Shown here: one piece after another, positions 10,281 to 46,700 of the stretch
Layout: every line of letters begins with the position of its first letter
Numbering within the stretch: position 1 is the first letter of the stretch
Assembly (NCBI GenBank): GCA_965178125.1
Contig: OZ237744.1
Location: 434,001-498,000, forward strand
DNA: 64,000 nucleotides
From: Bilabrum cf. latius
Taxonomy: Eukaryota
Reading direction: 5' to 3'
The notes under the pieces: model-generated
The model's input: the letters and a program-made list of their open reading frames with translations, nothing else
What the model was told of the DNA's origin: nothing
Database searches by the model: none
Program-made: the position numbers and the translations under genes

Positions 10281-13200
10281 TTAGTCTGCAAGGTTTCGCC
10301 CCGAGGCAGCCCTGCCTCCAGCAGCACCAGAGCTCCCATGACGCGCCGCACTCCGCACGCTCGCTCCCCTGGACCCTCCCCCTCCCCCTACCCCTACTAA
10401 TTGCTGCTCCCCTCGACCCCTGCCATTGGTAGGCGCAGCGGCAGCTGAACCTGCGCTACGCTTGCCTTGTCCAAAGATTGCGCTTCCTGGAGGCTGTGCA
10501 ACTGAGAGCATGCCGGTCCACACGAAATAAGCAATCAAAAGCCCGCCCAATCCAAGGCTGAGCAGCCAGAACATCAGGTAGCCATACTCAAACTAAAGCT
10601 CGGGCATTTTGACGAAGTTCATGCCGTACACGCCAGCGAGGATCTGTGCTGGAGCAGTCACAGTGGTCACGAACGTGAGCACGTAGCTGTTTCTCTCCCT
10701 CGCAAACGACTGGAGCTGCTAAAAGCCATCACTGAGCCTGCGAACGCCGGCGTTTATGCCCCTCAAGTCTCCCAACACGTTCTGCAAATCATCCCGCGCA
10801 TCCGCGAGCTCTGCCTGCATGCCCCTCCAGAAGTTCCTGGCCAAGCTCTGCACCAGCACGGCGTTGTCATTGCCCGGTCCATCCCCACCGAACCGTGCCA
10901 TGAGCCGCCCCCCGCCACTGCCATGGCTGGGTCCTGCCCACCCAACGTTGTCGAGGGCCTCATTTCCATACCGATGGCTTGCTGCAGCTGACACTGGCAC
11001 GCCGGGGATGGACCCTGCGTGCGTGGTTTGACCGTGCTGCACGTCGTGCCAACCGGCTGCGCCACGCTGCTCCAACTCGCCTTGATACCCCCCACCACCC
11101 TGAAGCGGATGCTGGGAACCCACGAAGCTTTGATTATCCGTATCGTCCCTGCCACCCGCACCAACCGGATGCAGTCTGGTGGTGGCTCGCCCTCCTTGAC
11201 TTGCAAGGCCCCGCATTATGACGGTACCCGCCCTAGTTCTCGGAGGGCTGCCACCTCGACGATGCCCCGACTGCGAGCCACCCAGCTAAATCGCCTGGGC
11301 TAGCTCCTCGAGATCACCGAAGAGGGGCTCCAGTTGCTCTGCGAAGGATGTGGATGTCTTGCCTAGCTGCAACAAGTGGGCTGATTGCGTGGATGTTGCC
11401 TAGGCGCCCGGCTTGGTCAGCTGATACTCCACCGCGGCTTCCCACTCCTTTAGCGTGTCACGCACAAGAAACGAGTGCTCCAGCACTTGATCCAATAGGT
11501 ACAGCGAGAGTTCCCTGACTCGCATCTCCAGAAATCCCGACATCACGCCCTTGCACGTCAGCTGCTCGGCAAGCTGCCTGAGCGGCCCAAATGCGGCGCA
11601 TAGGTCCTTTAGTTCCCCAGGTCCCATTTGCGACAGCTCCGCGCAGTACGGGCGTCGGCTGTCGTGAGAAACCGTACGCTCCCACCCATGGCCAAAGGCC
11701 TTATCGTACCCTTGCTGGAGCTCGTCGTCGCCTTGGGGCCGCAGTGTGAGCAGGGCAGTCTGCGGAATGCTGAAGATAGACAGCTGCTCGAAGAGTATCT
11801 CTACAGGGGCGGAATACAGGTCTGCTTCTCCGACTAGCTCCATCGTATTGGCAGCGGTAATTCCACTCAATGTGAAACCACGGGACCCGTGGGGCTCTGC
11901 CAGTGACCCGCTCGCTGCGGAGGCAGGCTGGCCTGCTTGCGGTGTAGATGCCAGCCCGGCCGACACGATTCGACGACTGCTCACTGCGCGGAGTCCTGCT
12001 GCCCCATGCTCCTACTAGGACTCGCTGCAACAGCCATTTAAGCCAGAGCACGAGCCGATACAGCCTGAGCAACAGCCTGACGCCTGCCAGCAGCAGCAGC
12101 CAGCGACTAAAGCTTGCGGGTCCACACCGTCCGCGCCGCGTCCTGATGGACCAGCAAAGGGCGAGCGCTCCGTTGGAAGCGAGGTGCAATGCAAAAGGAA
12201 ATGACCAACATGCGTAGGCGTGCTAGATGCTTGCTCTTCAGCAAGCCGATCCGACCCGAAACTTGCGTCCCATGCAGATGCTGCATCCACGGCGTCATTA
12301 CCGTGGGGCCCTTCTCCACCCACGGTGTGCGCTCGTTGCATATTGCTGACACCATCTGAATGTAAAAACTAGCCAGCCACACCCTAGCCGTTGGCATCAT
12401 ACGATCGCTGGGGCCCTCCGTGGGAGATGGATCTGTCCACGCCCGGGAGTGGCTAAGCCCCTACCTGGCCCACTACACCATGATCGTACCCTGGTCCGCC
12501 CTCGTGAAACGGCGGTTGCTCCCGAGTGCGATCTGGGAGCGAGAAAGCGGTCCGTATAGGTGGTGCCTATACATCACTCGGCCCGCCTATAAGCTTACGA
12601 GTCCCGCCGCTGGCAGACTCCATCTCGTCGTCGCTCGAGCTGGCGCCAGCGGGGTCATCCACGATGCTGTCCGCGCGCCGCAGGACATCCGGACCAACTG
12701 TCCCTAGTGCCCGAATTTCAAGCCTGGGACTTTCTGGCTGAGAGTTTGGACCTACAGGCTGAGACTCTGAGGCATTGCTGGCGCTTGGAGGCGGCTACGT
12801 CTCCGCTGCAGCTTCTGACGGTAGCCTCGCTTTGGAAGCTGCACCTGCCTGTACAGTCTGCGCTGCCTGCCGTCCGTGGTAACCTCGAGCAGTGCTTCCT
12901 GCGGGGTCATCTACGTTTCCCGGGTGCCCTTCCAGAACCATTCGATTGCTTGGATCATCAAGGTCAGGCGTGGTGGCTGGGGCAGAGGGTGGCATGGCGG
13001 GTATGACTCTATCTGGCCCCAGGTGGTGCTGGGCTAGACCAGGGCGCTGCCTGCGCGTGCCACACAGGTGCTCGGGACGCGTGAGAAGCCCTCGAGACAA
13101 GGGAACACACTCGTGCTTGGCTCTCTGAAACACAGCGGCATCTTTTAGTAGCTCAAGCGGGATGCCGCTCCAAGCAGCAAGAGCACGCAAGACGGCCGGG

Positions 13201-14441
13201 TCGAAGCCTGCAACGTCTATCCAGAGCCTGCCGCGTGGTAGATCCTCGTCTGCAATGGATTCAGAGCGCTGAATTATTCCCCCACTAGCAGAACTTCCAG
13301 ACCCCTCGCTTTGGGTGTCTGTGTCATCGGGTTGCGCCGCTCCTCTAGCATCGAGTGTGCTCGCAACCGCCGTGGCAACGCACTGACTGCTCTATCGATC
13401 CGCATCGTAAGGCTCGGGTGGTTGTCCACCAGGCGACGTGGCACTGCCAGCCCTGAGACCCGGCGCGTTTATGCCCGCTACATCCCCGATCGATTCTCTC
13501 CCGCGGCCAGCCAACACCCCTCCAGCGACGGGGGTGATAGCGGGTGAGCCGAGAGCAGCAGCCAGGGCAGGTGGTGGCGGTGGAGTGCGCGGCTGCATCC
13601 CTACATGTCCAATATCCTGTCCGCCACCCGCCGTAGATGCTCCCGACTAGCCGGCTTGCGGCTACGCGGCAGGTTCTCTGGCATCTTGAGGCTGCTGGTT
13701 GCGCCTGGCAGGCCTGCCCCGAGCCCCAGCAGCTTTCCTGCGCTGCAGCCGAATCCATTGCCACCGTTCAATACGCCAGCGCACAAGCCAAGTGTGCAAA
13801 CGACCGAGCTGCTCCTTCCCAGGAGGGAACACGAATACCTTCGAGCCGCAAGGGGGCCTTCCGTGCTGCGCAGGCGGCAGAGCCACCCTGCTGCCGCCTC
13901 GGTGTTGCCCGCCGGGCGCCGGGGAGTTGAAGCTGCTTTGCCGTAGAAAATTGTGATAAGTTTCATCTTGCTGTCCTACGAACCAGTACGAGAATTCGAT
14001 GATCGACACGGTGCACCCAGCCCCGCTATCGGTCTTGCTGGCACCCTGAGCAGTTGCCGGCTCTGATAGCGCACCATCACCACCAAAATCAGCCGGACGG
14101 GCTCTGCCGCTGTAGACAAATAACTTCTACTGCAGCTGCTCTCGGGATGTGCGGCCGAAAAATTCTAAAAACTCCGGTTCAGTCACACCTTGCCCGCGCG
14201 ACGCATCCATCTCTCGGAGCAGCTGCGCAGTGGCGAGTCTATCTGATACTTCCAAGCCCATGTGATACAAAGCTACGTGTAATTCATCTACGTCAATGAC
14301 CTGGTCCTGATTCGTATCGATGGCTCTGAAGAGCCGCCTTAAGTTCTTCCTGGAGAAGCCGCCACGCATCGCAGAGTCAATTTTGGCCTGTACAAGGCGG
14401 CGGCGGCGATTTTGCTATGCAAGAGAGGATGGACCTGACAT
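10281..14441 (-). CDS. CorA/MIT-family Mg2+ transporter with N-terminal EF-hand pair (~1,380 aa)
   Basis: All fragments (14127-14369, 13662-14009, 13392-13598, 12795-13190, 12015-12341, 11400-11984, 10719-11216, 10281-10574) share one frame joined by TAG. EF-hand loops DTNQDQVIDVDE and DASRGQGVTEPE. LWIDVAGFD; YLLDQVLEHSF; C-terminal AGVYGMNFVKMPEL*FEYGY with two TM helices. Ends TAA. Start is 14441 or 14369. Confidence 0.8.
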
Positions 14442-14562
14442 GTGTAAGTTTATCTGCAGAACTAGTCTTGAATGGCTAGCACCGGAGTAGCTTTCGCGAC
14501 TTGCTCCGAATCCAACGCGACCCTTGCGCCAACTGCAGGCATTTTAGCCTCTCCTGGCTTCC

Positions 14563-16899
14563 ATGCCGATCGAGGTAGTGCATTTCGATGTAAACAAAAC
14601 CATCATTGCGACAGACAAAGCTTCTGGTCAGTCTGAGGAGACAGTTGTCGACGGGCTCGTAGCTCGCAACATTTTTGGGTGTGTTGTGGCTGTGGAAGGA
14701 GCACAAGAAGATGACAATCAATCGTTTGGAGTTCCACGACCAGGAAAGGTGCTCCCGGCCGTTCCACCTCGCACCTTCTGGCGATTTCGCCCGGTAGCTC
14801 CAGACGATCCCGTTCTCGGGGGGAAAGCGATGCCACCCGCACGGGTGCTTGGAGCGTTTGCTGGGTCTCATGCCGCACAGTCTGGGTTATCTGGACGATC
14901 ATCAACCATAAAACAAAACAAGGCGCAGCTTAAAGCGTTGCTTCTGTCCACAATGGGTGGTGTGCACGCTGAGGACCGCGGACCCGGTCTGTTGAAGCGA
15001 GTGTAGCAAATGGGCCAGGAAGGACGCGTGACATCACTCGAAACGTTTCTACAGGAATATGCCTATCCTAGAATACCCCTGAGTGACTGCGAGTCGCGCG
15101 GCTACTCTAAGAGGGAAGCCAAGCACTACAACAAAGTCGTGGCGAAGCACTTCAGAAGGAGAGTGCAGGCGGCGTTGATCCGAGGACTCGCAGAGGCATC
15201 GTCGGAAGAGGCTGCCGGGGCAGCTGATGGTGGCACAGGCGATAGGTCTGGTTCATTGCCTTCGGCCAAGCCGGCGGGGGCTTCCGCCCTCCGCGGTGCG
15301 AAACCCGCTGCGGCTGAGGCACCTGCTCCAGCCACCCACGAGGACGCCAACCGAGCTCTCGTGCTGGCTGCCAGTGCCTCTGACTTGGCCCCCATGCCGG
15401 ATCTTAAAGCGAGCTTGAAGCAACTGTAGGAGAGACTAACAAAGTCTGAGCACCCGAAACTGCCCGCCAATGCAACCGACGCTGCGATGGAGGCGGAGCA
15501 CCTGCTCGAGGTGTTCTCGCTGGGCATGGCGGGAGAGGATCGCGGCCTAGAGGCTGGGGCTGCCTCGGCCGACAAGAAGAAGTCTGGACTGCTGAGTGGG
15601 TTGGGTGCGCTAGACGCGTACCGGCGATTGCTGTTCAAGCAGTGGCGGGACCTCATGGCGCTGTGCCGCTTGTCGGCCTCGGAGCGAGCAGCGGTGGATG
15701 CCCTCCGAGCAACTGCTCCAGAATCGCGGCACCCAGCGGCGCGCGTCCTTCCCGAGCCCATGTAGGACGGCGCCAGGGGCATCATTCCAGCCTTCTTCCG
15801 GTTTGTCGAGGCCCAGCTCCTGGATCCTGCCACGCGGGACACACTAGCCATTGTGATTCGCACGTTTGGCACCGATATCGCTGACATCGGCACGGAATGG
15901 AACATGTACTGCACAGGGCAGCATCCGTACGAGCGAATTCCCAAGGAGCTCGGTCTGTTGGACGGCAGCGGTCCCACTGGCATCGACATGCGACTCATGC
16001 TGCCGTCCTCGACGGCCATGATCCACAGGAGCGGGTACAGGGACCAGCAGCTGTCCGTTGCCGTGGTAAGCGAGGACGGGCCGGCGCCCGCGTGCGCCCA
16101 GCTCGTCGGATACAGGGCGCTGGACGGCTGGATCCGGAATCAGATATCGAGCGGGCGGCGGTGCCTCGCGGTCAGGGACTGCTACGCCTTCTGGAACGAG
16201 CAGGGCGAGGCCGCGGGCGCGGGAAAGGTCGTGATGGTGGACGCAAGTGCCTGGGGGAAACCGCCTCCGGTAGACAAGGGAGCGGCTGGTGGGTCCGGGC
16301 CCGGGGCTGATGGTGGCGTGGCGAGAACTGCTGCAGAGGGCGAGGTGCACCCGGTGTTCTTCGATGACAACGTGCTGCGGCGGCGCGCGAAGATTGTGGA
16401 TGCGCGCGTCATTCTGCCCGCAGGGTGCTCCTTCCGCAGAGCTGGTTCAGCTGCCGCTGCTGCCACCCCTGCTGCCACTCCTGCTGCAGCTGCTGCTGCC
16501 ACTCCTGCTGCCACTCCTGCTGCCACTCCTGCTGCCACTCCTGCTGCCACTCCTGCTGCCACTGCTGCTGCTGGCAGTGCGCCATCGAAGGTTGCAACCA
16601 GTGGCAGCTAGTGCAGCAGCGGCTCAGAGGTGGAAGTGGACGAGCCGGACACGGATGACGAAAGCGCTGCAAAGGCTGCTGGTGCATCAGGGATTGCGGC
16701 GAAAGAGCCCAGGCTTCCATTCTGTCTCACTCGCGGCGTGGTCACCATCAGGTGCGAAATCCAGGACGCGCTGCGAGACCCTTCCTACTTCTCGAAGGAG
16801 ATGGAGGCAGCTAGGGTGATGTGGCCCTCGTTTAAGGAAGCAGTGGCGGCCAGGGTTTCTGCTGCTGGGGTTGCTGCCACGGAGGGTTCAGGAGTGTAA
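14563..16899 (+). CDS. Hypothetical protein with HAD-superfamily-like motifs
   Basis: Single frame with TAG at 15004, 15427, 15763 and 16609; ends TAA. VVHFDVNKTII (motif I-like), IVIRTFGTD and VFFDDN (motif IV-like). Confidence 0.65.
16455..16572 (+). repeat. Coding 12-bp tandem repeat (GCTGCCACTCCT)n encoding (AATP)n
   Basis: Directly visible imperfect tandem repeat inside the HAD-like CDS. Confidence 0.85.
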
Positions 16900-17127
16900 A
16901 GGCACTGCTTTAGGGCAGCTGCAGCAACGACCTGCCTCCCGTGTACAATCAGATTGCAGAAGGTACCATGAGGATCTCTCTGTCGTTACTTGCAGCATTT
17001 GCATACTCCGCCACAGCAACACATGGCTACGTGAGGCATCATTGGAGATGATCGGATCCACGTGTTCGGAAACTTCTTCATTGTGTTTCGCACAATACTC
17101 TAGGTCTGATACTGGTTGATCCTATCT

Positions 17128-20100
17128 ATGGCATCTGCATTAGGAGGACTCCGATCTGGGATAGGCGCAGGGAGCAACGTGCTTGGTTGGTCCAGATCAG
17201 ATGCCCGCGTTTGCACGCAGTATCTTGAGCTAGACTGCGAACTCAAGGGCCACCAAGGTTGTGTAAATACAATTTAGTGGCACGAAGACGGCAAAACGCT
17301 ACTTACAAGCGGTGATGATACCGATATTCGGGTGTGGACTCCCGCTGGACCCGGGTGGAAGTCAGTTGCCATCGGCACTGAGCACACGGGGAACGTTTTC
17401 GATGTTCGTTCCGTCGACAGAGAGTTGACCAGCCTTGTGTCTTGCGCCGCAGATGGCCGAGTACTGTGCACTAATTTCACTGCAGCGTCGGGAGCCGGGA
17501 GAGGATCTAATGAGTTATTTTAGCACGAAGGACGAGCACACAAGCTCGCGGTCCGTGGAGCTGGAAGTGCCGGTGAAGGCTTCACGTTCCTTTCTGCAGG
17601 AGAAGATGGTATCGTGGCGCTTCACGACCTGCGTGAAGCCGGGCCTCGGACGGGCGCCGGATCCAGTGAGGTCTCCTGGCGGAGTACCAAGCTGTTGCGG
17701 ACGCAGCTGGAGAGCTTCAACTGGCGCTATGAACTCAAAGAGACAAAAATTGGCATCAATATCGTTTGCTTTGACCCGCAGAACCAGCACCAGTTCCTGG
17801 TTGGTGGCGACGACTGCATGCTCCGGGTTTACGATCTTCGCAATTGCAACGCAGCCGCCCAGCTGTACTGTCCTTCCCACATGACCGGACAGGTGGTGGG
17901 AGTCGACAGCGACAAGTTTCACATCACTGGAGCATGCTACGCACGGGACGGCAGCACAATTGCAGCCACTTACAACGACGAGCACATTTACCTGTTTCAT
18001 ACGGCCGCGGACTGCGGCCCTCTAATGCAGGAGTTCCAGCGACTCGACAACGTAAGGACTATCTTCGGGCTGCAAGAGAGGGAGGATTCCAGCGACGAGG
18101 AAGAAGGTGAAGACGAACACAAAGAAGGCGATGCAGCGGGCAAGCCTGCAGCGGCAGAGGCCGCAGCAGTTGACGAGGCCGGCACCGGACCACCACAGGA
18201 AGACGACAAGAACAGCGAAGACTCCGATGACTACGTACGACCCGATCGGTTGCCTCCACAAATAGGGTGGGCTTCGAAGCCGTATGGTGGCACAGAGAAC
18301 TATGTTGGCGAACGTTTGAAGCAGTGGATCAAGGAAAGGACAGAGATTGACCTTTACTACACCGAGACCAGCAACGTGGACTACTTGAGTTCTGGCGAGG
18401 CATGGTCAAGAATGAAGAGGCGTGACACCCCCGAGCTCGTGCGCAAGTACTTGTTTGCGAGCAGGCTAGACACCCATCCGCGATGCTATTCGATTTACGA
18501 GCCTGGTGCCCACGAGGACTGCGAACAAGTGCTGCTTGGAGCCGGAAAGCGGCGCGAAGGCATTGACGTGGAGGGTGACGGTGCCGAAACGCCTGGCGGC
18601 AGCATTTCCACTTCGCGGTCGCGTCGGATGGAGAGTCACATGCGGTGGCGTGCTGGTGTCGGGGGTCCTCGCTGGGGGTCTGGGCCCGGTAGCATGCGCT
18701 TCGGGGGTAAGGGCACACGCAGAAGCGGAGGCGCAGCCCCGGGCAGGCGGCATTTTGGAGCGTCAAGTGGTTTCAGCGGCAGCTCGGGATCCGGCTGGCT
18801 CGGCGCGCGGTTCTCGAACAAGGCGATGAGAATGTTTGCGAGCCGTCCTGCCCCATTGATCCCTAGGCAGGCGCTTGGGCTGCCACGCAAAGGTACGGCA
18901 ACCTACGAGCAGGCGGCCAGGTTCAAGCGATACGCACCAGACCGCACCTACACGCTGCAGCTGAGGGGGCAGCGCAATGCAGACACGGTCAAAGGCGTTA
19001 CATTCATGGGCAAACGATCCGAGGTCGTTGTGGCCGGCAGCGACTCTGGCCACATCATTGCGTGGGACAGGTACACGGGCAACCACCTGTGCACAGTGAA
19101 GGCAGACAAGGATGGCGCAGTGAACTGCCTGCACGGCCATCCTGCCGGCCTGCCTATTCTTGCCACGAGCGGGCTAGAGCACACTGCCAAGGTGTGGTCT
19201 CCATCGATCCGCAGGACGCTATCAGAATCTAAAGTCTCTGCCCAGACTGGTGCTAGCAAGGGCACCAAGAAAGGTGGCAATGCCGGAGCAGGCACCGGTG
19301 GTCAAACCGAACGAAGCAGTGGGGCAGCGACTGCCTCGGGCAGGCGACCAACATGTTCTCCACTCTATGAGTCCGTTGGTGGCCGAAAAGGTCTGCAACC
19401 GCCGCGTGTTACGGACCCTCGAGCGTCGCAAGGCGAAGACGGCTACTATCGGCTGTCTCGAGACCAGGCAGTCGAGTTGCTCGAGCGAATAGAGAGGAAT
19501 CGCGTAACAGGCATGGCATCCAGGCCAGTCGGCGCAGGTAGTATGGCAGCAGACAGGATCTTCCAGGTGCGGGCCCTCATGCGCGTCTCTGTGTAGATGG
19601 AGGCGGCCCGCCAGCGCGTGCAGCGAGCTCGCCGCGAGCTGGGACTCCGTATGTCTGCCAGGGGCTGGCAGGGCAGGGTACCTGCTGCTCCTCGGTATCG
19701 TGACCCTGGGATGGTACTGTTGATGGGAGGCAGGGACAGCAGCGACGAGGAAGATGGGGGCGACAGCGATTAGGATGAGGATGATGGCGGGGATGGGGAT
19801 GGGAAGGGTGGTGGTGAACAAGCTGCCACACCAGCGAATGTAGGTGGTAGCGCTCCAGCAGCAGCAGGAAGCACTTCGGCTGAATCCGGCGGCAGCTCGG
19901 GCCCCGAATAGACCCAGTTGGAGAGTTTTACGGTCGAGGCAGCGAGGGCTGTGCTCGGGGCCGAGGCCGACGGCCTGCGTGCCATTGCAGATCTGGAGGC
20001 GCAGGCTGGCGTTCTGGCACGTCTGCGCGAGCTTCACCGGACGGTTTACCTTGGACTGCTGCATGGGGCTGAGGATGAGGATGAGGGTGAGGATGAGGAT

Positions 20101-20238
20101 GAGGGTGAGGGTGAGGGTGAGGATGGGGAAGAGGAGGGTGCTGCGCAGTGGGATTCCAGCGACAGCTCGGACAGCAGCTCGGAAAGTGGCTCAGAAAGTA
20201 GTGATAGCGTGGAAGACAGAGATGATGAACGGCACTGA
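17128..20238 (+). CDS. DCAF8/DCAF6-like WD40 protein (CRL4 substrate-receptor-like)
   Basis: LKGHQGCVNTI*WHEDGKTLLTSGDD; HTGNVFDV; LF*HEGRAHKLAV; HITGACYARDG..ATYNDEHIYLF; GQRNADTVKGVTF..VVAGSDSGHI..WDR; VNCLHGHP..LATSGLEHTAKVWSP. TAG at 17275, 17521, 19594, 19771 and 19909. Acidic tail; ends TGA. Confidence 0.88.
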
Positions 20239-20385
20239 TACATGAGTGTTATTTGTTGTGTTATGTCTTTACAGCTGCTTGTAGAGGGTGCATACGAGGC
20301 TATTCATCTTCAACATACCCACAACAAATATGGACAAAACAGTCCAGCTAACTCTGTGCAGCACCGCCACGAATAATCTTTCTTC

Positions 20386-21049: not shown

Positions 21050-21344
21050 CTCAGTTGGTCTCCACGCACGTCCCGGCCGGCACGCTCGCCACGTTCCGAC
21101 CGCTCTGCCCGATCACGCAGCTCACGTCGGTCCGCTTCCCGTCCTTGGCCACAGACACCACCACCGTCTCCCCGGGGGCGCCCTCCAGCGTCACGCTCGC
21201 GCTGCTGCCGTCCTCCGCCCACGCGATGAACCGGTCGCCCGAGGTGGGCACCCACTTGCCGGCCTCGCCCAGCAGCGCCCACCCGTTGGGAGACACGGGG
21301 CTCAGGTGGAAGAGCTCGAACGTGTACTGGTCCGAGGGGGACAG
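21050..21344 (-). repeat. Direct repeat copy A: orphan duplicate of the last ~97 codons plus stop of the gene at 26631-29212
   Basis: 295 bp identical to 26630-26924 except at 21066, 21084 and 21329. Confidence 0.95.
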
Positions 21345-34200: not shown

Positions 34201-37200
34201 CAGGGGCAGACATGGGCCTGTTGAGCTCCTCTTCCTGGGAACCGGAGGTGTCCGTCTGATGGTTAGAATCCCCCTAGCTACTAGACAGCCGTGACAAGCG
34301 CCGAGACAGCCGTGATGGCGGAAGCCGCCCACGCGCAGAGCTAGGAGTCTGGCTGCCTGCCGTTCTGCCTGCGCCAGTAGGGGTTCCTGACACCCCATCT
34401 GATTCGTCGCCCTCCATCATTTCCTGAGTCGCAACGTCACCAAAGGCAGCGAGAGCATCCTCCAGGCTGGCATCCAGATCATGACCGGCATCATCGCTGT
34501 CACCGTCTGAGCCAGCCCGCCCAGGGTGTTTTCGATCAGCACCTGGTCGTACCGTGCGGGACGCACTGCCGGCCTTTGCCGGCGGGCTGAATCGCTTTGG
34601 CCCTTTTGAAGCAGCTAGTTCACGGCAGCGTCTCAAATGAGACTCGAAAACGGGGTCCTGCGGTGCCCAGCAGTCATGGTCGCCACTATCTGAGCCAGTC
34701 CGTGGCAGCGCTGATTCTGGCGGCCGCGGCAACGGGGCAGGACCCGCTGATCCAGCGGTCGCGCCAAGAGTGACCAGCTCGGCCGGGCACTAGTCCACCA
34801 CGATGCAGCTCACAAAGGGCATGGCATCTTCTCTCCTGCCGCCCTCGAGCTCTCTCAACTTGGCTTCAGCGCGCCGTTGCTGTGATTCAACGCACGCAGC
34901 CATCTCTTGCCTCAGCATCGATTCCATGTCTTCGCCATCGCTACCCCGTGACCTTTTCCTGTTCTACTTGGTCCGCTGCTGCATTTCACTCTCAACCTCT
35001 TGCCTCTCCTTTGCAAACTCAACCTCCAGCTCTGCCTTGACCCTTGCCACCTCTTTGGCTCGCTCAGCAGAAGCTTGTTTCGAGAGCATGTCAAGCTCAA
35101 GTTGGGACACTGAGCGCTTGGATCCATCGGGGAGAGTTGCAAGGTACCGCGGGGCCATCTGTCGCACCACCGTAACAACGATGCAGGGGGCAGGGCCTCC
35201 TTCTGGCAGCAGCGACCGAAGCGATACTGGGAACAGCTGCTGCTGCTGAAATCCAAGCTTTGCGTGCCAAGGTGCTCTACGAGTAGCATTTGCGAACAAG
35301 ACGAGGTGTCTATCCTTCAGTAGGTCGCGCTTCAGCATACCCCTGCCTTTTTGCTTCGACTTGGAGGTCGACTTGGACCTCTTTGACGAGCTGCTTAAAA
35401 CAGATGACGAAGAGGACGCAGAGGCCTCGCGTGACCCCGTGCTGAAGTCAGACCAGCCCCCCAAATGCATGTGTACAGCATTGGTTGCTGTCTCAAGTGG
35501 GTCGCAGCCGTCTACTTGCATGCCTCCGCCCCGCCCACCAGCAGGCTTTGAAGAGCTACCAGCACTTCCTGATGCTTGCTGGTCACCTGATGGAGCGGTA
35601 GCGGCTTGAATACGCGCAACACCCCCAACAAGCTGGGCACAAGAGACCCTGATCTTGTCGCCAGGCCGAATGCGACGATCACACGCATACCTTGACAGAT
35701 GGGGGTCAAAGCGAGCCTGGATTGAGTACCATCCATCTGAAAGAGTTGCGACAGCCTGATTCGCCTGGCCAGCTGCACCGCTCACTGCCTTGTCGGTCTG
35801 CTGCAGCTCCGATGCAGTATTTGTCTCGATGCTTTCTACGGCCAGAATCATATATCTTTCAGCCTTCGAGTCCCCTTCCAGTACTCGACGCAGGGCAGAG
35901 CGCCGCCCTTCACTGAACTCCCGTTGGAATCGCTTCCCCAGCCTGGTAGCAACGACTCCGAGACGCAAGCAGGCATCTCCAGCCGCTGCAACGACCGGGT
36001 CGGCTAGTTCGGCCGGTAAAACCTGCTAGGCAATGCATGCCCCTATCTGTAGCGCCTCTCTCAAGTCACTCTGCGTCGATCCTGTCAACGACTTCAGCTA
36101 ACGTGCAGCCTCCTTCAGGATCCAGTGCTCCATGGCTGCAAGCTTCCACACTGTCATTTTAAACTGCTGGGCAATCCAGGACGGCGTGAGCTGGTCTGCA
36201 GGACCCGTCCCGGACTGCACAAGCTGTCGATGAATATCCTGCACACCGACCGTTGCAAATGGCACGGATAAACCGCTTTTTCCAGCGACGACCCTTCCAT
36301 CCCCGCCGAATCGAGTGAGAACTGCATCCCCTGCGGTCACTTTGAGGCCACCGAGCTGCGACAGCAAAAATTGCTTAGCTCGAGAAACGGCACGATCGGG
36401 GTGAATCCCCAAGTTGTCGATCTTCGCAACGAGCTCCAAGGGGCTAGACCGCATGCTGCCGCTCGACTCTGCAGCCGCCCTAATCGCCATGAATGCACAC
36501 AGACAAGCGACACGATAGGCTCTCTGTTGCAAGCCGTCTTTCATGGATACCTTCGGGCCGCTTAAATGCGCGTTGTGCTGGCCGATCGACCACATTCCGG
36601 CCGGGCCGATGAACAGAGCTCGACTGGAACTCTTAGAGGCTTCAGCAGACTTTGCAGCTTCAGCGTGCCTGTTCTAGGCAGGCTATCGCACCCTTGCGGC
36701 CGGTGTCGGTGTCATTAACGCCAGCTGTGGCATATCATCGTGTGATATGTCAGCACCAACTGTACGGTTGAATGATGCGGGGGTTTTTGAGGGTACTCCG
36801 CGGGCTAAGGCAGACCTTGGGGTGCTTGCTAAAGCACTCATTCCTGACGTAGCGGCATGGATGCCTATAGCACTCATCGCCGACCCCTCCAAGGATTCGA
36901 GAGCCAGTGCACTGCTGCTGCTGCTGCTGCTGCCTTTGCCGACAGTGCCATCTACCTGCGAAGCGTCTGGTTTGGTACCATTTGCTCCTCTACCTGCACT
37001 TGCACCTGCACCTCCATCTGTCCCAGCCGCCTCCAGCAGCTTGCCCGCCTCCCCATCAGCCGATGCCAGCATCGCACGAGCTCGAGCCTGTGCCTCAGCC
37101 GACACACGCACTGGCCGGTTCCGCCCTGTCTGGAAGCCCACGCTGCCCCCCGATGAGGCACCGCCAACAGACCCACTACTAGCACCGCCTGATGCACCTG

Positions 37201-40200
37201 CACCACCACCTGCACCTGCACCTACATCTGCCCCAGCCGCCTCCAGCAGCTTGCCCGCCTCCCCATCAGCCGATGCCAGCATCGCACGAGCTCGAGCCTG
37301 TGCCTCGGCCGACACACGCACTGGCCGGTTCCGCCCTGTCTGGAAGCCCACGCTGCCCCCCGATGAGGCACCGCCAACAGACCCACTACTAGCACCGCCT
37401 GATGCACCTGTACCACCACCTGCACCTGCACCTCCATCTGTCCCAGCCGCCTCCAGCAGCTTGCCCGCCTCCCCATCAGCCGATGCCAGCATCGCACGAG
37501 CTCGAGCCTGTGCCTCGGCCGACACACGCACTGGCCGGTTCCGCCCTGTCTGGAAGCCCACGCTGCCCCCCGATGAGGCACCGCCAACAGACCCACTACT
37601 AGCACCGCCTGATGCACCTGCACCACCACCTGCACCTGCACCTACACCTGCACCTGCACCTCCATCTGCCCCAGCCGCCTCCAGCAGCTTGCCCGCCTCC
37701 CCATCAGCCGATGCCAGCATCGCACGAGCTCGAGCCTGCGCCTCGGCCGACACACGCACTGGCCGGTTCCGCCCTGTCTGGAAGCCCACGCTGCCCCCCG
37801 ATGAGGCACCGCCAGCAGACCCACTTCTAGCACCGCCTGATGCACCTGCACCACCACCTGCACCTGCACCTACATCCCCATCTGCCCCAGCCGCCTCCAG
37901 CAGCTTGCCCGCCTCCCCATCAGCCGATGCCAGCATCGCACGAGCTCGAGCCTGTGCCTCGGCCGACACACGCACTGGCCGGTTCCGCCCTGTCTGGAAG
38001 CCCGCGCTGCCCCCTGATGGGGCACCGCCAACAGACCCACTACTAGCACCGCCTGATGCACCTGCACCACCACCTGCACCTGTACCTGCACCACCACCTG
38101 CACCTCCATCTGCCCCAGCCGCCTTCAGCAGCTTGCCCGCCTCCCCATCAGCCGATGCCAGCATCGCACGAGCTCGAGCCTGCGCCTCGGCCGAATCACG
38201 CACTGGCCGGTTCCGCCCTGTCTGGAAGCCCGCGCTGCCCCCTGATGGGGCACCGCCAGCAGACCCACTACTAGCACCGCCTGATGCACCTGTACCACCA
38301 CTTGCACTTGCACTTGCACCTCCATCTGCCCCAGCCGCCTCCAGCAGCTTGCCCACCTCCCCATCAGCCGATGCCAGCATCGCACGAGCTCGAGCCTGCG
38401 CCTCGGCCGACACACGCACTGGCCGGTTCCGCCCTGTCTGGAAGCCCGCGCTGCCCCCCGATGAGGCACCGCCAGCAGACCCACTACTAGCACCGCCTGA
38501 TGCACCTGCACCTGCACCTGCACCTACATCTGCCCCAGCCGCCTCCAGCAGCTTGCCCGCCTCCCCATCAGCCGATGCCAGCATCGCACGAGCTCGAGCC
38601 TGCGCCTCGGCCGACACACGCACTGGCCGGTTCCGCCCTGTCTGGAAGCCCGCGCTGCCCCCTGATGGGGCACCGCCAACAGACCCACTACTAGCACCGC
38701 CTGATGCACCTGCACCACCACCTGCACCTGCACCTGCACCTGCGCCTGCACCTGCACCTCCATCTGTCCCAGCCGCCTCCAGCAGCTTGCCCGCCTCCCC
38801 ATCAGCCGATGCCAGCATCGCACGAGCTCGAGCCTGTGCCTCAGCCGACACACGCACTGGCCAGTTCCGCCCTGTCTGGAAGCCCACAATGTCATTCGTA
38901 TGCGATGTTTCAGGAGCCTACGTACTAGAATCGACAGCTGATGAGTCGTCTTGAACGGGCTGTGCAGCGCCCGGTGACTGTTGTGAAGCAGATACCGAGC
39001 CACGACTAATCCGATCGAGTCGGGGAGACTTAAATCGCCTACTGTCTGCCCCCGTTCGACGAATGTCCTTGGGAGAGTCCGCGCCAGCGGTATCACTTGC
39101 TGTCTATCTTACCCGCAGTCGCTTCTTCGAACGCCTAGCCTCAGCGAGTCCAGACACAGTTGGCGAGTATGCGAAGGACTATGAGTTCGAGCCAGGGCTG
39201 GGCACAGCTGCCACTGCCGCATCCACGCCTACGTCTATATCGCGCGTCACAGCAGCTGAGCTTGAAGCAGTTGCACCGTTGTCTGTTGTGCTGCCAGCAA
39301 TAGCGCGCTTTGCAGAGCTTTCCTTTCGAGGAGAGTTTTGCGACGGCTACGACGGCTCGCTGCTGTCAGGAGCGCCGTGAGACTCCAAGGATGGCAAAGC
39401 CTGCTGCTGAACAGGTGGCTTATTGGAGGCATCTGCCCTGCTCACAGCCTATGATGGCGTCATTGATTGCTTCTGCACAGTGTTAGTGGCCATGCTATTG
39501 CCAGCATCGGCCTACATACCCGACTCATCGCTTTCTGGGGATGGGAGCACACGTCCCGCTTCACCGATTTTGCCTGAAGCAACCATCCTATCACTCGCGG
39601 AGCGCCCGAGGACACTGTCAGGCTACTATGACCCTTGCCTTGGCGCGGCACCAAACGATGCTTCTTCCTGTGTCTCAGCTTGCATAGATGCAGCTGCATC
39701 ACTGAAAGCTATGCCGCGGGGTGAAAGTACCCCGCCAGACTAGCCCTCTGCGTCAGTGACGGCAGTTCTAGGCACCGCAAGGGGCGCTGCAGCACCGCTC
39801 CTGGCGGTTACCCCCTGCAGCTCAGTGTTCTCGAAGCTGCTCGCATCCGCAGCAGCGGCTGGGGCCGGGCCAGACTGGCTCGTGCCCGAAGCGCCCGACC
39901 CCTAAAGCTACCGCTTGCTACCTTGTGAGGTGGAGTCAGAAGAATCAGGCGATGGATCGGAATTGGCAGAATTCGGTGATGTCCCTTTCTGCTTGCTTCT
40001 TGAGGAAGAGCGCCGGTTTTTCGAGGACTTGCTCGGTGCTCGCTTTGCACCGGGGGACGCGGATCTGCGCCCCCTTTTCGACCTTGAAACGCTAGCTGGC
40101 GCAGATTTCGGTCGTGGGACGCCGCACATCTTGCATTTTCTAGCCCTAGAATTGTTGTTGAAGGTGCACATGCTGCAGTCCCAGCGATCCTGCTCAGCTT

Positions 40201-40381
40201 TCAGACGTCGCATCTTTGCTCGCTCTGCACGCGTCATAGCCTTAGACTGGCTGGATGAGATACTATCAGATGCAATGATATCACCATCCAATGGCTGCAC
40301 ATCGTCTATGTCATTGTGGTCATCTGCTTCCTTACCACTGAAGTACGCTCCCGCAGCACCTGCCCCTTCCAATTTATCCAT
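31265..40381 (-). CDS. BRCA2: BRCA2 homolog (~3,040 aa): N-terminal RanBP2-type zinc finger, 9 BRC repeats, helical domain, OB folds and tower
   Basis: Ten ORF-track fragments all lie in one frame and all end in TAG. SWIAQQFKMTVWKLAAME (helical domain); REFSEGRRSALRRVLEGD..MILAV; LSDGWYSIQARFD; LFANATRRAPWHAKLGF; FPVSLRSLLPEGG; OB3-like IVDIVAVVV and VFLTDES. Terminal TGA at 31265. I did not check every codon for hidden stops or introns. Confidence 0.9.
31461..31505. repeat. (GCACCA)n hexamer microsatellite encoding (GA)n near the BRCA2 C-terminus
   Basis: About 7 perfect units directly visible. Confidence 0.85.
36990..38887 (-). repeat. Tandem array of 9 BRC-repeat units (~204-240 bp each)
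   Basis: Near-identical core GFQTGRNRPVRVSAEAQARARAMLASADGEAGKLLEAAG separated by Gly/Ala/Ser linkers whose length varies through CACCTG hexamers. Confidence 0.95.
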
Positions 40382-40731: not shown

Positions 40732-43062
40732 TCAATCGATAGAGGTGCCGTTGGTATCGATCCCCCTAGCCTCTAGCTCACCCTGCAGTCTCTCCTGCTT
40801 TTCTGCCTCGTCCTGCGTCGCTTTCACTGCCCTCATGTACTTGCGTTGCTGGTCCTGCAGCTCTTGCAATGCCACCTGCTTCATATCGCGCTGCTGCTTG
40901 TGCACGTCAAGCTGCATCTGCTGCTCATTACGGGTGCGCTCCACCGCAGATTGGATGGCCGCGAGCTGCTTCGAGATGGACTCTCGCCCCTTGGCGCTGG
41001 CCATGGCCTTGATGAAGCTGTCGGCCACCGACACCACGATCGATTTCTCCTTGGAGAGATGCTCCAACCTCTGGGACTCCACCTGATGCATGCTAAAATA
41101 CTTCCTGGTTTCATCCGTCTTACTCGCTGAGACGTCGTACAGCTCCTCGAAGCGAGCGCGGTACTGCATCAGCTCAGCCTGTGACGGCACCTCGTCCTTC
41201 AGCAGCGCAATACGCTGCACCTCGCGCGCACGACGGCCCAGCAACGCGCGCATCCTCCTGTGCTTATCCTTGGCCTCTTCAAATGCCGCCTCTGCACGCG
41301 CCAGCCTCGTGCCGTCATCGTCTCCAGCGCCACCCCCGCCCCCGCCCTCTCCTGCAGCCGCGCGCAGAGTGTCAAGCCGGGAGGTAAGGTCATCCCGCTG
41401 CCTCTTGCAGTTGGCCTTGAAGGCCCTTTCTTGCTCGAGCATGGTGGCGTGTACCGCCAGCGCCTTCCGGAGGGCCATCCACTCGTCATACTTTCCTTGT
41501 TCCCTGGCTGATGCCTCTAGCTTGGCCAGCTCCTTGTCGAATCGGCCCAGGTGCGCCCTGGACTTGCGGAGGCCCTGTTCCACAGCGCCCAGCTCTTCTA
41601 GCACGCCGGCCAATTCCTCCAACGCCGCCTGCATCTCCACCTCAGCCACCTGCAGCTCACGACGGGCGCGGGCTAGCTTCCTCTTGTGGGCCTGTGCCCT
41701 GCCCAATCGCGAGTTGGCCAGCATGGCCCCGCTCTCCGCCTCCGCCTGCTGCGCCGCCCTTCTCCTCTCATACTCTGCCGCGGCCTGCGACATCGCCCCG
41801 CTCTGTTCCCCCAGCAGCGCACCCACATCTACGTCTTCATCGTCGCCGTGGCCGTGCGCGCCACCGCTCCCGCCAACCCCGGCCTTTCCCCCCGCTGCTC
41901 CCGCACCTCCTTTGGCGCTGGTCATGAGTCCCAGCATCCTAGACTCCGCCTCCCTCGCTGCCTTGCTCTTCTTGCCCCCCTTGCCCTTGCCCTTGCGGGT
42001 GCTCTTCCCGCCTGCCTCCTCGTCCTCATCGTCGCTGCCATCCCCGCCCGCTGCGCCCCCCCCACCGCCCCCTCCTTTACCCTTCAGCGATGTCCCCGCC
42101 GCCAGCCGCTCCCCGTACTCGAGCAAAGCCGCTTGCACCCTGCCTTGGCGGTCCAGTGATGGGTCGCTCCAGAGCTCCGCGGTCCTTCGCATCCTACGGG
42201 CTGGCTTGTATCGGTTCAGAATGTGCCTGACAAACTATGTCGATGCAGCTTGCTTCCTAACGACTTCGGCCGACGCTTGCTGCGACTCCTCTCTGGACAT
42301 GGTCGGGGCCGGCCCCGTGTCGCCCTTGCGCGCCGCTTTTGCAGCCCTGCTTGCCGCCACGAGGTGAGGCCTTGCATGCTCAAAGGCTTCGCCGAGATTC
42401 TCTTCGAACGTCATCATGGCAGCCCGGCGAACGTCGTCGCCCGTGGCGCGCCGGTTGTCGAGGACTTGGCGCACGAGCCACTGCACGACGGGGAAAATCT
42501 TGTTGTAGTCGCCACCCTGAATTTGGTTGGCCTGCAGTGGGGCCGGGCAGCCCATTTCACGCAGAGCTTTGACTATCTGCTCTCCGACAGCACTGCGTTA
42601 AAGGACGGAGTGGATGTAGACAATGCAAATGCGTCCAGGAGCTCCAATGACTTGGTGAGCGGACTCGCGACAAGTATAGCTCACATTTTCTGACCCAGCT
42701 TGAAGCTGTCATCGTATAGAATATCAACTTCAAGGTCAGCTCCAGACGAGGCGATTCCCCATGCGAGACCCCCCACGACCTGCGTCCGCCTCAGGAAGAT
42801 CGGCAGCAGTTGCACATGGTGAACGTACCGAAGAAAGGACTGACAGGCCTGTTGGGCGAAATAATATACTCACCTTATCGAACGGGTCAACTTTAGGAAG
42901 CCTTGCACGGAAGTACCCAGCGCTAAGTAGCAGCGAAACGCAAGCCTCCAGCTTTTCCTGTTGCAACTTCTTTTCGTCTGATGAAGTGGCGTCTTGATCG
43001 CCTGCCTGCATTTCAGACGGTGCAATATGATCATCTGGTTCTGAATCTGAATCGAAGTCCAT
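40732..43062 (-). CDS. CCDC93: CCDC93 (CCC/Commander complex coiled-coil protein), 3 exons
   Basis: LLLSAGYFRARLPKVDPFDK|VVGGLAWGI; CPAPLQANQIQGGDYNKIFPVVQWLV; DEVPSQAELMQYRARFEELY..ETRKYF. Introns at about 42782-42873 and 42594-42657. TAG at 42235; ends TGA. Confidence 0.9.
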
Positions 43063-43777
43063 GCTGATGAAGCCAAAACCAGTACAATCTCGCCGGGATC
43101 GCTGAAATCATTTGTACCGTGCTATTTGATTAAATAAGACCAACATGAGCACCACCTGAACACTCTTGAAGCTTGACAGGTGTGAGATATTTCAAGATTG
43201 TGGAGGTTCGACCAACTTTTAGATGTGCTTTGCTATGTGAATCTGCACTGGCTGCAGCAAGTTGTTTTGCTTGAGTGCTGGTGGCGACTGTTGTGTGCCT
43301 TGGCGCTGCCACCTACTTGTGATACTGGACGCTCGAAGCTGAATGAAGAAAAAACACTGCGTTCTTTCCGATCGCGCTATCGTTTATTCGACTGCTGCTG
43401 ACATGAGAGACTCATGAATTCTGCAATCCCGACAGCTTCCGTCCGTGTGTTTTTGTGTTGGCCCTGCCCCAAGTACAAACGTGTTTCCCTCGCCTGGTAC
43501 AAACGGGCGCTTGGAGTCAAACCTTGGGCATAGTATGTGTGTATCGTGTGGAGTGTGGCGCCTCGCGGCGACTGCTCCACCCTGCATGCAAGCGAATTGC
43601 CCGTGCACCTGCACCCTGACCTGTGGGCTGCTGAGGGCCTTGGCCTCGTGCCATGAATGCGCACATTCTTCTTGCCCTTTAATGTTTATCAAATTTTGCA
43701 GGTTTATCACATCTAGGTGTTCTAATAACACCCCACATGTATTTATCTGGCAGAATCCGCCACAAGCACGACTGGTT

Positions 43778-46700
43778 TTATCGAAGCCACAGTTGCTCAT
43801 CATCCGCCTGAGAGGAACCGCCAGCTATCCGAGGGTCATAAAGACTTATCGCTGGTCTCTTGCGTCTACTTTCGTCCTGCCCCACCGGTGCCTTCCTGGC
43901 ACTTTGGCTGCCGGGTCGAGCACCGTGACCGAGCTACCGCAGCTGCCTGCTCCTCGTCTCGGCGGCCTGAGCCGCGCGGGCCTCCAGCAGCCCCAGCCTT
44001 GCGCGAGATGCGCCTGCACCGCCCAGCACCCGTGATCCAGCCCCAAGCAGCTTGCCGCTGCTTCTGGTGGAGCCAATGGCCCCGCCTGTCCTTGGTGGTC
44101 GGCGCGGAGACACGCCTGCACCGCCCCATGCCTTCCTGTCCGCAGCGCGCCGCACCGCGCTCGCTGCCAGCAGCCGAGGAGAGACGAGAGCATCGAGGGT
44201 GTCAGTACCACCGCTGGGTGCCACTGGCACGACCCCACTTCTGCGCGGGGCGGTCACTAGGCTGGCCTTGTTTCTTGCAGTCAATCGTTTGCGGTCGCTA
44301 CCAGCTTTAGCATGGCCAAAGCCCCGGCGATTCTTGATTCTGTGCCTGTCGGAGCCTTGCATGCCCTTCTCAAGCCCACTTCCAGAACCATGCTATGGAG
44401 CATGGTCATCACCCAGCCCTAGGTCCTTTTCAATGGCAAGATCCTCCCGCGCGCGAGCATGCATGGCTTCGACTGAGTGATGCAGCCCAACCGCCGATGC
44501 CTTTGCTAGCGCCCTGGCACCGTCTGCCAGAACATCGTGGGTGCCATGCGCCGTGCGAACACCCTTCAGTACCTGCACGGTGTTCTTAGACAGCTGCCCA
44601 AAGGCACCGTACAGCGGTTTGTCATCCAGTTTGCGGGCCTCCTCTTCCTGCTGCTGTTTCCTTCTCAGATGGCGGTGAGACACACTGGGGTTGACCGGCC
44701 GGGTGTCCGCAAGATCGCTTGGACTCGTTTTCGACGGACGCACAGGATCAAATAAAGAGTCTCGTGCGGCCCTTCTACCAAATGCAGGACGCGCGCTGCC
44801 TGCAGCTACTGCACCCTTGGAGCGACTCTAGCCCGACCTTGCCACCTTCTTGCCGGCACCGCCCTACTGCGCGGGGTGCTGCGGCCGACCTGCCCCGAAC
44901 GCCTCGTCCTTCAGACCTCGTGGGGCCTTCAACCTGCGGCCATTTGAGTCGTACGTGGCTGCCTCTCGACCGGATGGCGACGGATCGCACGATAGCTGCC
45001 AAGCCCTCGGCTGCTTACGTGCTAGCGTTTGCATCTGCGCAAGCATGGCCTTGCTGTGCGATCGTCGAACGGATGCTTCTGGAAGCAAATCTTGCCGCAT
45101 TTCCACGGGGCGGAAACCCTCCGGATGGATGCTCCTAGCGGATGACAGGCCGTGCATGATCGAAAAGCTGCTTCCTCCGAAGCCGAGGCTTGCGCTGGTC
45201 CCTCGCAGCGGCGACTCGGGAATAGCTGCCCCAGATGGAAGCCCCTGCACATTGAATGGTGGTAGCCCGCGGTTCTGCACCAATGACTCGGAACTATAGC
45301 TGGACTGCAGCCGTGCGAGGCTCTCGGCACCTGCCAAAGCCGCAGCTCCTCCATCCGTCCTTGGGCTGCTGTCCTGCGAATGCCTTTCCCAGTGCGCTTG
45401 CTGCGCAGCGGCCGCCAGAGAGACCTGAGCAAACGGCCTTGACTTCCGAAGCATGGCCTTGGCCGCGGCTCGGCTGTTCCTAGGTGAGCGAGATGCTGGC
45501 AGGTTTGGGGAAGTCGCCTGAGAGATGGACACCCCCCCGGCAGGTAACCCTCCTGAGAGCACTTGGTCTTCGGGCACCCGCGACAGAGCCGTCTGCATCA
45601 GTGAGATGCCTGAAGCTGCCCCGCGACCGGATTTCGGCGTATTGAAGCTGGATGAATGTGCAAGAGAGTGCACCGACCTTACCCTGCGCATGTTGAGCTT
45701 GGGCACCTTGGGCCTGTCCGTCTTGCGGCCCTGGCCCGGGCTGTTTGCGATGTGCTTGAGCCGCTCGATTCGAGCGAGGCATGCACCAACCGAGTCTGCA
45801 TCGAGATCGGCAAATGGAAGGGCCTGCATCGATTGGCTGGCCTGCTTATTGCCTCCAGCAAAGTTTCTGCTGGGGCTGCTGCCCAACCTCTGCTCGCTTC
45901 TGTGGGCGCCCACGAAGCGGCGAGCTAGGCCAGTCCGGGCGTCAATCGTCTTGAGCTTCCTACGCCTGTCCGCGTTGGCCTTGGCCGTAGCATTGAAGCG
46001 TTTTTCGAACTTTTTGTACTTTGATTTAAGCGAATCGAGAGCATGGTCCATTTGCCCAACTGCCCACTTGCTGGCCTGCCTCGCGGTCTGCACCTATGCA
46101 ATGACGTTCTCTTCGACCATCCTCGCCTCTGCTACTTTCGATTCGAAGAGCCCGACGGGGAGGTCTTCTTCGACGTCTGGCAGCACGTCTATGCGCCGAA
46201 GCCCATTGCTCGCCTGGCCGAGTTTGCGGGCTGCTTTGCCTTGCTGCCCGTGAAAGGAGCCCGAGTTGGTGGATGGCGGGGTCTTCAGGATTCTCGATAT
46301 GCTCCGGCTGTCATCATCACCAAACCCCAGTGTGTCGGCAGTCATGTCTGCCGCGCCAAATCCGTCCCCGTCCTCGTTTTGCTTCATGAGCTGCCGCAGA
46401 GAAGGCAGCGTGTGCTCTGTGTTCCCATCGAACAGTGAATCTTTCGACACGATGCCCGCCTCATCGCCGAACAGGGACCGGCTTGAGTCCTTGCCCCGTC
46501 CGATCTGTCCCAAAAATTGAGGTACTTTCGAACCGTTGCTGAAACCTGCCACTGAGCCGGGCTTCTGCGCCGACACTCCACTCAACAGAGAACGCGAGGA
46601 GCCCTGCTTCGCCGCAGAGCGTTTCGAAGCAAACATGGAGGCCATTGCCCGCAATGGACTGGCTCTGCTTCCGGCATCAGGTGGGTCTGAGACTTCTGCG

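Follow-up and report, generated by a model that had tools for sequence, protein, structure and literature searches.

Which of the three standard stop codons still end genes in Bilabrum cf. latius (Eukaryota)? The question is raised by a 64,000-nucleotide stretch of its genome (NCBI GenBank assembly GCA_965178125.1, contig OZ237744.1, positions 434,001 to 498,000 of the forward strand), referred to below as the window and numbered from its first letter, in which long reading frames run through TAG and close at TGA or TAA. We counted codons within and outside the reading frames, analyzed the gene ends together with the sequence that follows them, and aligned TAG positions with homologous proteins. 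Cytoplasmic translation very probably reads UAG as a sense codon, most likely for glutamine, and terminates mostly at UGA and sometimes at UAA, which corresponds to the pattern of NCBI translation table 15.

In-frame codons

The window is eukaryotic nuclear DNA with a GC content of 59% overall (range 56–62%) and with short GT-AG introns, which are confirmed by spliced RNA contigs. Contigs of three public runs (X5, X6 and X7) match the DNA exactly except for missing GT..AG segments of 93, 168 and 97 bases; since these segments are kept in the DNA run X1 and skipped in X5–X7, the contigs of the latter runs are RNA-derived. Three additional introns were located by reading the sequence, two in the CCDC93 gene and one in a giant gene encoding an EF-hand protein (Table 1).

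With the standard set of stops, the six frames contain 27 open reading frames (ORFs) of at least 300 codons, totalling 11,622 codons. When only TGA and TAA are treated as stops, there are 33 such ORFs with 25,063 codons in total, the longest of them comprising 3,047, 2,641, 1,421 and 1,249 codons, and all 12 of the long ORFs tabulated first carry at least one TAG. Codons were counted in 19 refined pieces of coding sequence (CDS) with 16,983 codons; this set took in 37 intronic codons (51700–51810) and missed about 85 codons of the next exon, which leaves the zero counts unaffected. The in-frame counts are 113 TAG, no TAA and no TGA, next to 186 CAA and 505 CAG; thus, the initial annotation was right in describing coding regions that are free of TAA and TGA and in which CAA is common. 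Frames 2 and 3 of the same sequence contain 55 and 77 TAA, 279 and 373 TGA, and 162 and 143 TAG, respectively. The out-of-frame sums are 132 TAA and 652 TGA, and unconstrained TAA occurs about once per 260 codons. Given this out-of-frame density and ORFs that are thousands of codons long, the absence of in-frame TAA is not due to chance. TAA is kept out of the reading frames exactly like TGA, and TAG is not.

These counts bear directly on the common code in which both UAA and UAG mean glutamine (UAR = Gln) and TGA is the only stop. TAA could then be rare merely as a result of GC richness, as the GC content of the window, the disfavoured NNA codons (shares of 0.17–0.52) and the closure of most genes by TGA might suggest. 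However, the probability of observing zero TAA next to 113 TAG is 4e-16 if TAA had the share of CAA among CAR codons (0.269), and it is still only 1e-9 at the lowest NNA share (0.167) among 13 NNR codon pairs. Out of frame, TAA is common.

In contrast to TAA and TGA, TAG behaves like an ordinary codon. It accounts for 113 of the 804 glutamine-type codons, i.e., about one in seven, and its position along genes is similar to that of CAA and CAG (Kolmogorov–Smirnov p = 0.47, 102 TAG versus 636 CAR codons in 14 genes). Pfam domains flank in-frame TAG on both sides in the GH65, SulP/STAS, CorA, WD40, CCDC93, BRCA2 repeat and OB1, EF-hand, RsmB/F, Snf7 and Rdx families. Conserved sequence resumes after the codon: the GH65 protein aligns with human PGGHG well beyond its TAG residue 699, and the second membrane helix of the CorA-like protein comes after TAG residue 1283. 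No base differences separate the spliced RNA-derived contigs from the DNA across TAG-bearing stretches, indicating that TAG is neither edited nor spliced away; in particular, X5 record 8 has zero sequence differences over 4128–8564, so the TAG codons of this region are present in RNA. Within the window, UAG behaves as a sense codon.

Termination at UGA and UAA

Every ORF in the window continues to TGA or TAA, and none of the genes ends in TAG. The three TAA ends listed in the initial annotation were all found to close long ORFs (10281–10283 and 43778–43780 on the minus strand, 16897–16899 on the plus strand), and its estimate of about 16 TGA ends proved roughly correct, with 13 ends supported by homology or a long ORF and four less certain. 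An apparent TGA end at 51457 was rejected, as the ORF in question is exon 1 of the giant EF-hand gene, which ends at 43778, and this TGA is out of frame in exon 2. TGA thus ends about five genes in six (13–17 of 16–20 gene ends). The dominant terminator is UGA and not UAA, a point absent from the earlier account. At gene ends, TGA and TAA stand in a ratio (13–17 to 3) close to that out of frame (652 to 132), which fits two working terminators that are used in proportion to composition.

If UAA were read through, the three TAA-terminated genes would extend to the next in-frame TGA by 95, 24 and 87 codons (10281, 16897 and 43778, respectively), and two of these extensions contain a second in-frame TAA (at +27 codons in the 10281 gene and at +33 codons in the 43778 gene). 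We scored these extensions by the mean codon-usage log-odds per codon. The stretches after TAA score −0.11, −0.22 and −0.07 for the genes ending at 10281, 16897 and 43778, versus +0.11, +0.39 and +0.15 for equal lengths before TAA, and stretches that follow TGA stops score between −0.66 and +0.06. None of the three extensions, which span 9996–10280, 16900–16968 and 43517–43777, gave a Pfam match. Therefore, the sequence past the three TAA stops looks non-coding, scoring like the stretches past TGA. Removal of these codons by splicing was also considered: X5 record 13, an RNA-derived contig, is unbroken over 16534–20058, so the TAA at 16897–16899 is not spliced out, and a GTAAGT-type donor context was found at none of the three terminal TAA. 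The gene downstream of 16897–16899 begins with an ATG at 17128.

Three further TAA, each lying between two ORFs of the same frame, were tried as in-frame sense codons and rejected. Those at 42598–42600 and 51701–51703 sit in intron 2 of the CCDC93 gene and in the intron of the giant gene, respectively, and that at 23057–23059 lies at a gene boundary, upstream of the start of a P-loop gene. The plus-strand ORF leading up to the latter (22229–23056) scores −0.10 per codon, and the opposing minus-strand ORF (22354–22968) scores +0.09; for reference, the scores of true CDS windows are +0.16 ± 0.08, with none under +0.01, and those of antisense windows are −0.25 ± 0.15. The plus-strand ORF is an antisense shadow of the minus-strand gene.

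Altogether, the data from this one window support the conclusion that UAA behaves like UGA, being kept out of reading frames and serving to close genes. The earlier claim that UAA remains a stop codon is borne out by its zero in-frame versus 132 out-of-frame occurrences and by three TAA-closed genes followed by non-coding-like sequence. If TAA were instead read as glutamine along with TAG, it would occur only five times in about 17,000 codons, each time no more than 95 codons from the end of one of three genes and in sequence whose codon usage looks non-coding. A code with both UAA and UAG as glutamine is strongly disfavoured, and we regard it as very improbable.

A different possibility is that UAG is read in two ways according to context and that UAA and UGA are ordinary stops. 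That ambiguous codons are depleted ahead of true stops is described in passages of PMC11687900 as a hallmark of context-dependent codes, and in the last 50 codons of 14 genes we observed one TAG versus 5.9 expected from CAR codons, which counts against a purely sense UAG. In addition, the TGA stop of the BRCA2 homologue is immediately followed by TAG. However, the depletion is gone in the last 20 codons (1 versus 1.9) and in the last 100 codons (9 versus 9.8), and the 50-codon value is uncorrected for the three window sizes tried. Moreover, TAG is not required as the end of any gene in the window, and conserved C-termini close at TGA: the alignment of CCDC93 reaches residue 629 of the 631-residue human protein near its TGA, and the CHMP3 tail ends with what we take to be a MIM-like motif. 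The 50-codon scarcity of TAG amounts at most to a hint of residual, context-dependent termination at UAG near gene ends, and a dual meaning of this codon appears improbable.

The amino acid read at UAG

The residue encoded by UAG was approached through homologous positions in other proteins. For the GH65 protein, an exhaustive HMMER search yielded 150 homologues and three usable TAG columns, in which glutamine scores 4.47 bits, lysine 4.02, glutamate 3.12 and leucine −2.37. In a control with random triples of known codons, the true residue was recovered in 2,308 of 2,950 cases, and non-glutamine codons were called glutamine in 20 of 2,850. A larger set of six columns combines these three with one from NSUN2 (120 homologues) and two from CHMP3 (four homologues, including two cluster members; word-indexed searches for CHMP3 homologues gave two proteins and one protein, too few to be used alone). 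Over the six columns, glutamine comes first with 7.64 bits, followed by glutamate (5.71) and lysine (2.90), and all other residues are negative. In controls of 300 draws each, glutamine ranked first in 188 draws from true glutamine columns, and in 1, 4, 10 and 14 draws from true glutamate, lysine, aspartate and asparagine columns, respectively.

Some positions and approaches were set aside. TAG residue 300 of NSUN2 falls in an insertion that is gapped in all 120 homologues, residue 21 of the same protein belongs to an N-terminus that aligns poorly (G 39, E 16, K 12, A 11, Q 9), and residue 477 of the GH65 protein is gapped in 136 of 150 homologues. Inference from neighbouring residues, which pointed to valine, threonine or isoleucine for TAG, was discarded, since it placed the true residue first for only 18 of 58 codons and did not recover CAA and CAG as glutamine.

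Pairwise comparison with proteins of known structure gives a second line of evidence. In searches of the Protein Data Bank (PDB), 24 TAG sites were entered and 11 aligned to the best match. Glutamine occupies three of the 11 sites, each in a locally conserved motif, and no other residue recurs. The three sites are TAG residue 270 of the GH65 gene (motif AWAxLW, aligned with the human PGGHG structure), the TAG at 30085–30087 (motif IxR, aligned with human CHMP3), and the TAG at 17521–17523, which matches a glutamine of human DCAF8 ('nelfxhegrahkla' aligned with 'krvaqhkgashkla', motif xHxGxxHKLA). The second CHMP3 TAG corresponds to asparagine in the human protein and to glutamate in yeast Vps24. 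A third line comes from a pair of paralogous exons within the window, in which the TAG at 26907–26909 (minus strand) is opposed by CAG at 21327–21329 in the near-identical copy at 21051–21383. There are three differences in about 290 aligned bases; besides CAG/TAG, these are AGC/AGT and TGC/TGT, and thus all three are silent if TAG encodes glutamine.

In this small sample, glutamine is the best-supported meaning of UAG and most likely the correct one, as had been proposed from the letters of the window: it ranks first over the six columns, it is found at three of the 11 PDB-aligned sites, and it fits the CAG/TAG paralogue pair. A sense UAG with another residue would mean glutamate or lysine, or else leucine or serine as in other UAG-only codes; nuclear codes with UAG = Leu and UAG = Ser are described in passages of PMC5304391 and PMC11687900. 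Glutamate and lysine are indeed next after glutamine over the six columns and come close to it in GH65 alone, and glutamate stands at one TAG site in yeast Vps24. Nevertheless, glutamine is top-ranked, true glutamate, lysine, aspartate and asparagine columns rarely yield it first, and leucine is negative in GH65 and not positive in the six-column set. The three glutamine matches in conserved motifs and the CAG/TAG difference, which is a single transition, also fit glutamine. Another residue at UAG is, in our judgement, quite improbable.

Several points weigh against UAG-only reassignment to glutamine as a whole. TAA was among the stops used to delimit the ORFs, which makes the absence of in-frame TAA partly circular. 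A conserved C-terminus is missing from all three TAA-terminated proteins, so these ends lack confirmation by homologues, and the RNA data, being contigs, do not delimit 3' ends and leave 10281–10283 outside their coverage. The sample is one 64-kb window with about 20 genes and three TAA ends, and within it no sequences of tRNA-Gln(CUA), eRF1 or glutaminyl-tRNA synthetase (GlnRS) were seen. The glutamine assignment is based on six columns and 11 pairwise sites at mostly variable positions; eight of the 11 sites carry other residues (L, V, A, R, N, H, K, T), and GH65 alone places lysine and glutamate near glutamine.

A plausible mechanism would involve a tRNA-Gln in which one mutation turned the anticodon CUG into CUA. 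Such an anticodon would pair with UAG and not with UAA, as the latter would create a C:A mismatch at the wobble position. A tRNA with the anticodon UUA, which would read UAA as well as UAG, is not expected. The N-terminal domain of eRF1 would lose the contest at UAG and still recognise UAA and UGA, and GlnRS, which uses the anticodon as an identity element, may need to adapt. A tRNA-Gln(CUA) together with an altered eRF1 is also predicted in passages of PMC5304391, from which, along with parts of PMC11687900, the decoding rules are taken; the eRF1 N-domain elements listed there, where changes would be expected to weaken UAG recognition, are the GTS, NIKS and YxCxxxF motifs and the residues E55, L69 and S70 (PMC5304391). 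An Rfam scan of the window gave just two tRNA genes, Gly(UCC) and Glu(CUC), neither of which qualifies as a suppressor tRNA.

Gene content, lineage and comparison with known codes

The window encodes ordinary eukaryotic proteins, including a GH65/PGGHG-like glycosidase, a SulP/STAS transporter, a CorA-like channel with EF-hands, a DCAF8-like WD40 protein, BRCA2 (BRC repeats and OB1), CCDC93, a giant EF-hand protein, an NSUN2-type methyltransferase, CHMP3, an Rdx/SelT-like protein, a DNPH1-like protein and a RING protein (Table 1). Standard-code gene callers would truncate most genes of this genome, and its annotation needs table 15.

Table 1. Coordinates and properties of the features described in the window.
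Feature	Positions	Strand	Codons	In-frame TAG	Stop	Remarks
GH65/PGGHG-like gene	3037–3959 and 4128–5732, plus an upstream exon ending at 2943	+		4, including 3807–3809 in motif AWAxLW	TGA	Pfam PF03632, E 2e-37; introns shown by spliced contigs in X5, X6 and X7
SulP/STAS transporter gene	5867–9953, intron 9487–9583	−		6	TGA	Intron joint CT..AC on + strand, i.e. GT..AG on − strand
CorA-like/EF-hand gene	10281–14441	−	1,386	16	TAA, 10281–10283	CorA Pfam match at residues 1209–1306, within which TAG residues 1241 and 1283 fall
Gene without known family	14320–16899	+	859	6	TAA, 16897–16899	
(Ala-Thr-Pro-Ala)n-coding repeat	16332–16915	+				GC-rich; part of the 859-codon gene
DCAF8-like WD40 gene	17128–20238	+		5	TGA	
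P-loop gene without known family	23063–26170	+	1,035	12	TGA	
Three-exon secreted-protein gene	26631–29209	−		26907–26909 in last exon		
Duplicated last exon	21051–21383 and 26631–26960	−				Two copies, 5.3 kb apart
CHMP3/Vps24 (Snf7) gene	29392–30123	−		2	TGA	Pfam PF03357, E 5e-25
tRNA genes, Gly(UCC) and Glu(CUC)	30647–30717 and 63210–63281	− and +				In intergenic spacers
BRCA2 homologue	31265–40381	−	3,038	25	TGA	Pfam BRCA2 repeat, E 9e-62; BRCA-2_OB1, E 5e-24
Tandem BRC units	36900–38900	−				Within the BRCA2 CDS
CCDC93 gene	40732–43062; exons 43062–42874, 42779–42685 and 42592–40732; introns 42780–42873 and 42593–42684	−			TGA	
Giant EF-hand gene	Exon 2 43778–51694, intron 51695–51810, exon 1 51811–53391	−	about 3,170	22–23	TAA, 43778–43780	Intron donor GTAAGT, acceptor CAG; exons in frame
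NSUN2-like tRNA (cytosine-5) methyltransferase gene	53688–57020	+		3	TGA	
RING-finger membrane protein ORF	57018–57716	+	231			
Rdx/SelT-family gene	57855–58673	−				
GH94-like gene	59475–63077	−	1,200	7	TGA	

The introns range in size from 92 to 168 bases and have GTGAG or GTAAG donors. The second CCDC93 intron (42593–42684) and that of the giant gene share the terminal motif TTTAAC(C)GCAG, in which a possible branch-point-like TAAC may sit merely 6–7 bases from the acceptor. The GH94-like protein has no relative in the PDB search. The RING-finger ORF lies directly past the TGA of the NSUN2-like gene, in the same frame; this arrangement is probably a coincidence (a one-in-three chance) combined with a very short intergenic spacer. 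The redox site of the Rdx/SelT-family protein is a CTAC motif (Cys-x-x-Cys), which is consistent with the lack of in-frame TGA in the window. In animal SelT, the corresponding site is Cys-x-x-Sec.

Repeats and duplications were observed in three genes. The (Ala-Thr-Pro-Ala)n-coding region has a summed contig depth of 685–1,318 in the RNA-derived runs, with many contigs of 90–95% likeness that have loose ends there, which suggests that the repeat recurs in many transcripts or genes. The BRCA2 homologue contains about nine near-identical units of roughly 80 residues, each consisting of a BRC repeat (FQTGRNRPVRVSAEAQARARAML...) and, after it, a spacer rich in Gly, Ala and Ser; recent tandem amplification of this kind is unusual for BRC repeats. 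The three-exon secreted-protein gene is GC3-rich (0.88), and the two copies of its last exon diverge upstream, at the apparent splice acceptor.

Judging by the encoded proteins, the protein collections contain nothing close to this organism: the best match for GH65 has 45% identity, the NSUN2 matches have 35–40% identity, with all the top named ones belonging to oomycetes, and the best CHMP3 cluster, at 35% identity, includes Cafeteria roenbergensis. In a quick single-gene tree of NSUN2 with 41 rows, the query was placed beside oomycetes and environmental sequences without names (SH-aLRT 93 and 97), and animals, fungi and an amoebozoan fell elsewhere. As this tree holds no alveolates, rhizarians or plants, the stramenopile-like affinity is a lead, not a result. 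A metagenome scan with NSUN2 gave two loci at 54% identity; locus L002 was rejected as a close relative, its NSUN2 homologue being free of in-frame TAG.

UAA and UAG nearly always change meaning together, and each lineage that splits them shows that the ribosome, the release factor and the tRNA pool can distinguish these codons. The known cases of UAG-only glutamine are AT-leaning or UAA-terminating and mostly belong to ciliates. For theories of codon reassignment, the present window offers a contrasting case, being GC-rich, with mostly UGA ends and UAA as a working stop. It can be speculated, with slightly less than even confidence, that the UAG-only glutamine code originated independently in a GC-rich protist that is free-living or associated with algae and belongs to neither ciliates nor metamonads, possibly to a deep branch of the stramenopiles, with UGA as the main and UAA as the minor terminator. 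If true, this would favour a tRNA-driven (ambiguous-intermediate) route over simple codon capture through AT pressure, since at 59% GC one would not expect UAG stops to have been rare at the time of capture.

The statement in the initial annotation that UAG-only glutamine codes occur in very few lineages agrees with Panek et al. 2017 (PMC5304391) and McGowan et al. 2024 (PMC11687900), on which the following comparison draws. Such codes are reported there for Iotanema spirale (Fornicata), in which UAA and UGA are stops (PMC5304391), and for the phyllopharyngean ciliates Hartmannula sinica and Trochilia petrani (PMC11687900); UAG = Gln in Protocruzia tuzeti is cited within the latter. A search of the full-text literature, with most subscription journals and unopened supplements outside its scope, found no description of a GC-rich or stramenopile organism with this code.

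Iotanema resembles the present case in that UAG alone is reassigned, to glutamine, with UAA kept as a terminator, and in the predicted tRNA-Gln(CUA) derived from tRNA-Gln(CUG) along with an altered eRF1, for which the GTS-motif change T32G was proposed (PMC5304391). In contrast, UAA is the primary terminator in Iotanema, and UGA is in this window; furthermore, Iotanema is a metamonad known from its transcriptome, whereas here the code occurs in a genome that is 59% GC and encodes an NSUN2 grouping with oomycetes. Hartmannula, Trochilia and Protocruzia likewise use table 15, with UAG widely in frame and spread like glutamine codons (PMC11687900). However, these ciliates prefer UAA and use UGA least (1.7–13.1% of genes; PMC11687900), an order that is reversed here. 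The window is part of a GC-rich contig that is long and has spliceosomal introns, and nothing in it points to a ciliate.

Other codes share some of these features. UAG is uncoupled from UAA, which is still a stop, in the rhizarian exLh and the TARA phyllopharyngean metagenome-assembled genomes (MAGs), both with UAG = Leu, and in Scotinosphaera, with UAG = Ser (PMC5304391; PMC11687900), but the residue differs, since leucine is negative at the TAG columns here and serine is not positive. The UAR = Gln code (NCBI table 6) of many ciliates, hexamitin diplomonads, some green algae and oxymonads (PMC5304391; PMC11687900) also represents a stop-to-glutamine reassignment, probably via a mutated tRNA-Gln; unlike the present case, in which UAA ends genes, UAA is also a sense codon there and only UGA stops. 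At the level of a single window, the comparison supports a rare known kind of code in an organism that is set apart from the earlier cases by its GC richness, by termination mainly at UGA and by belonging to none of the lineages on record.

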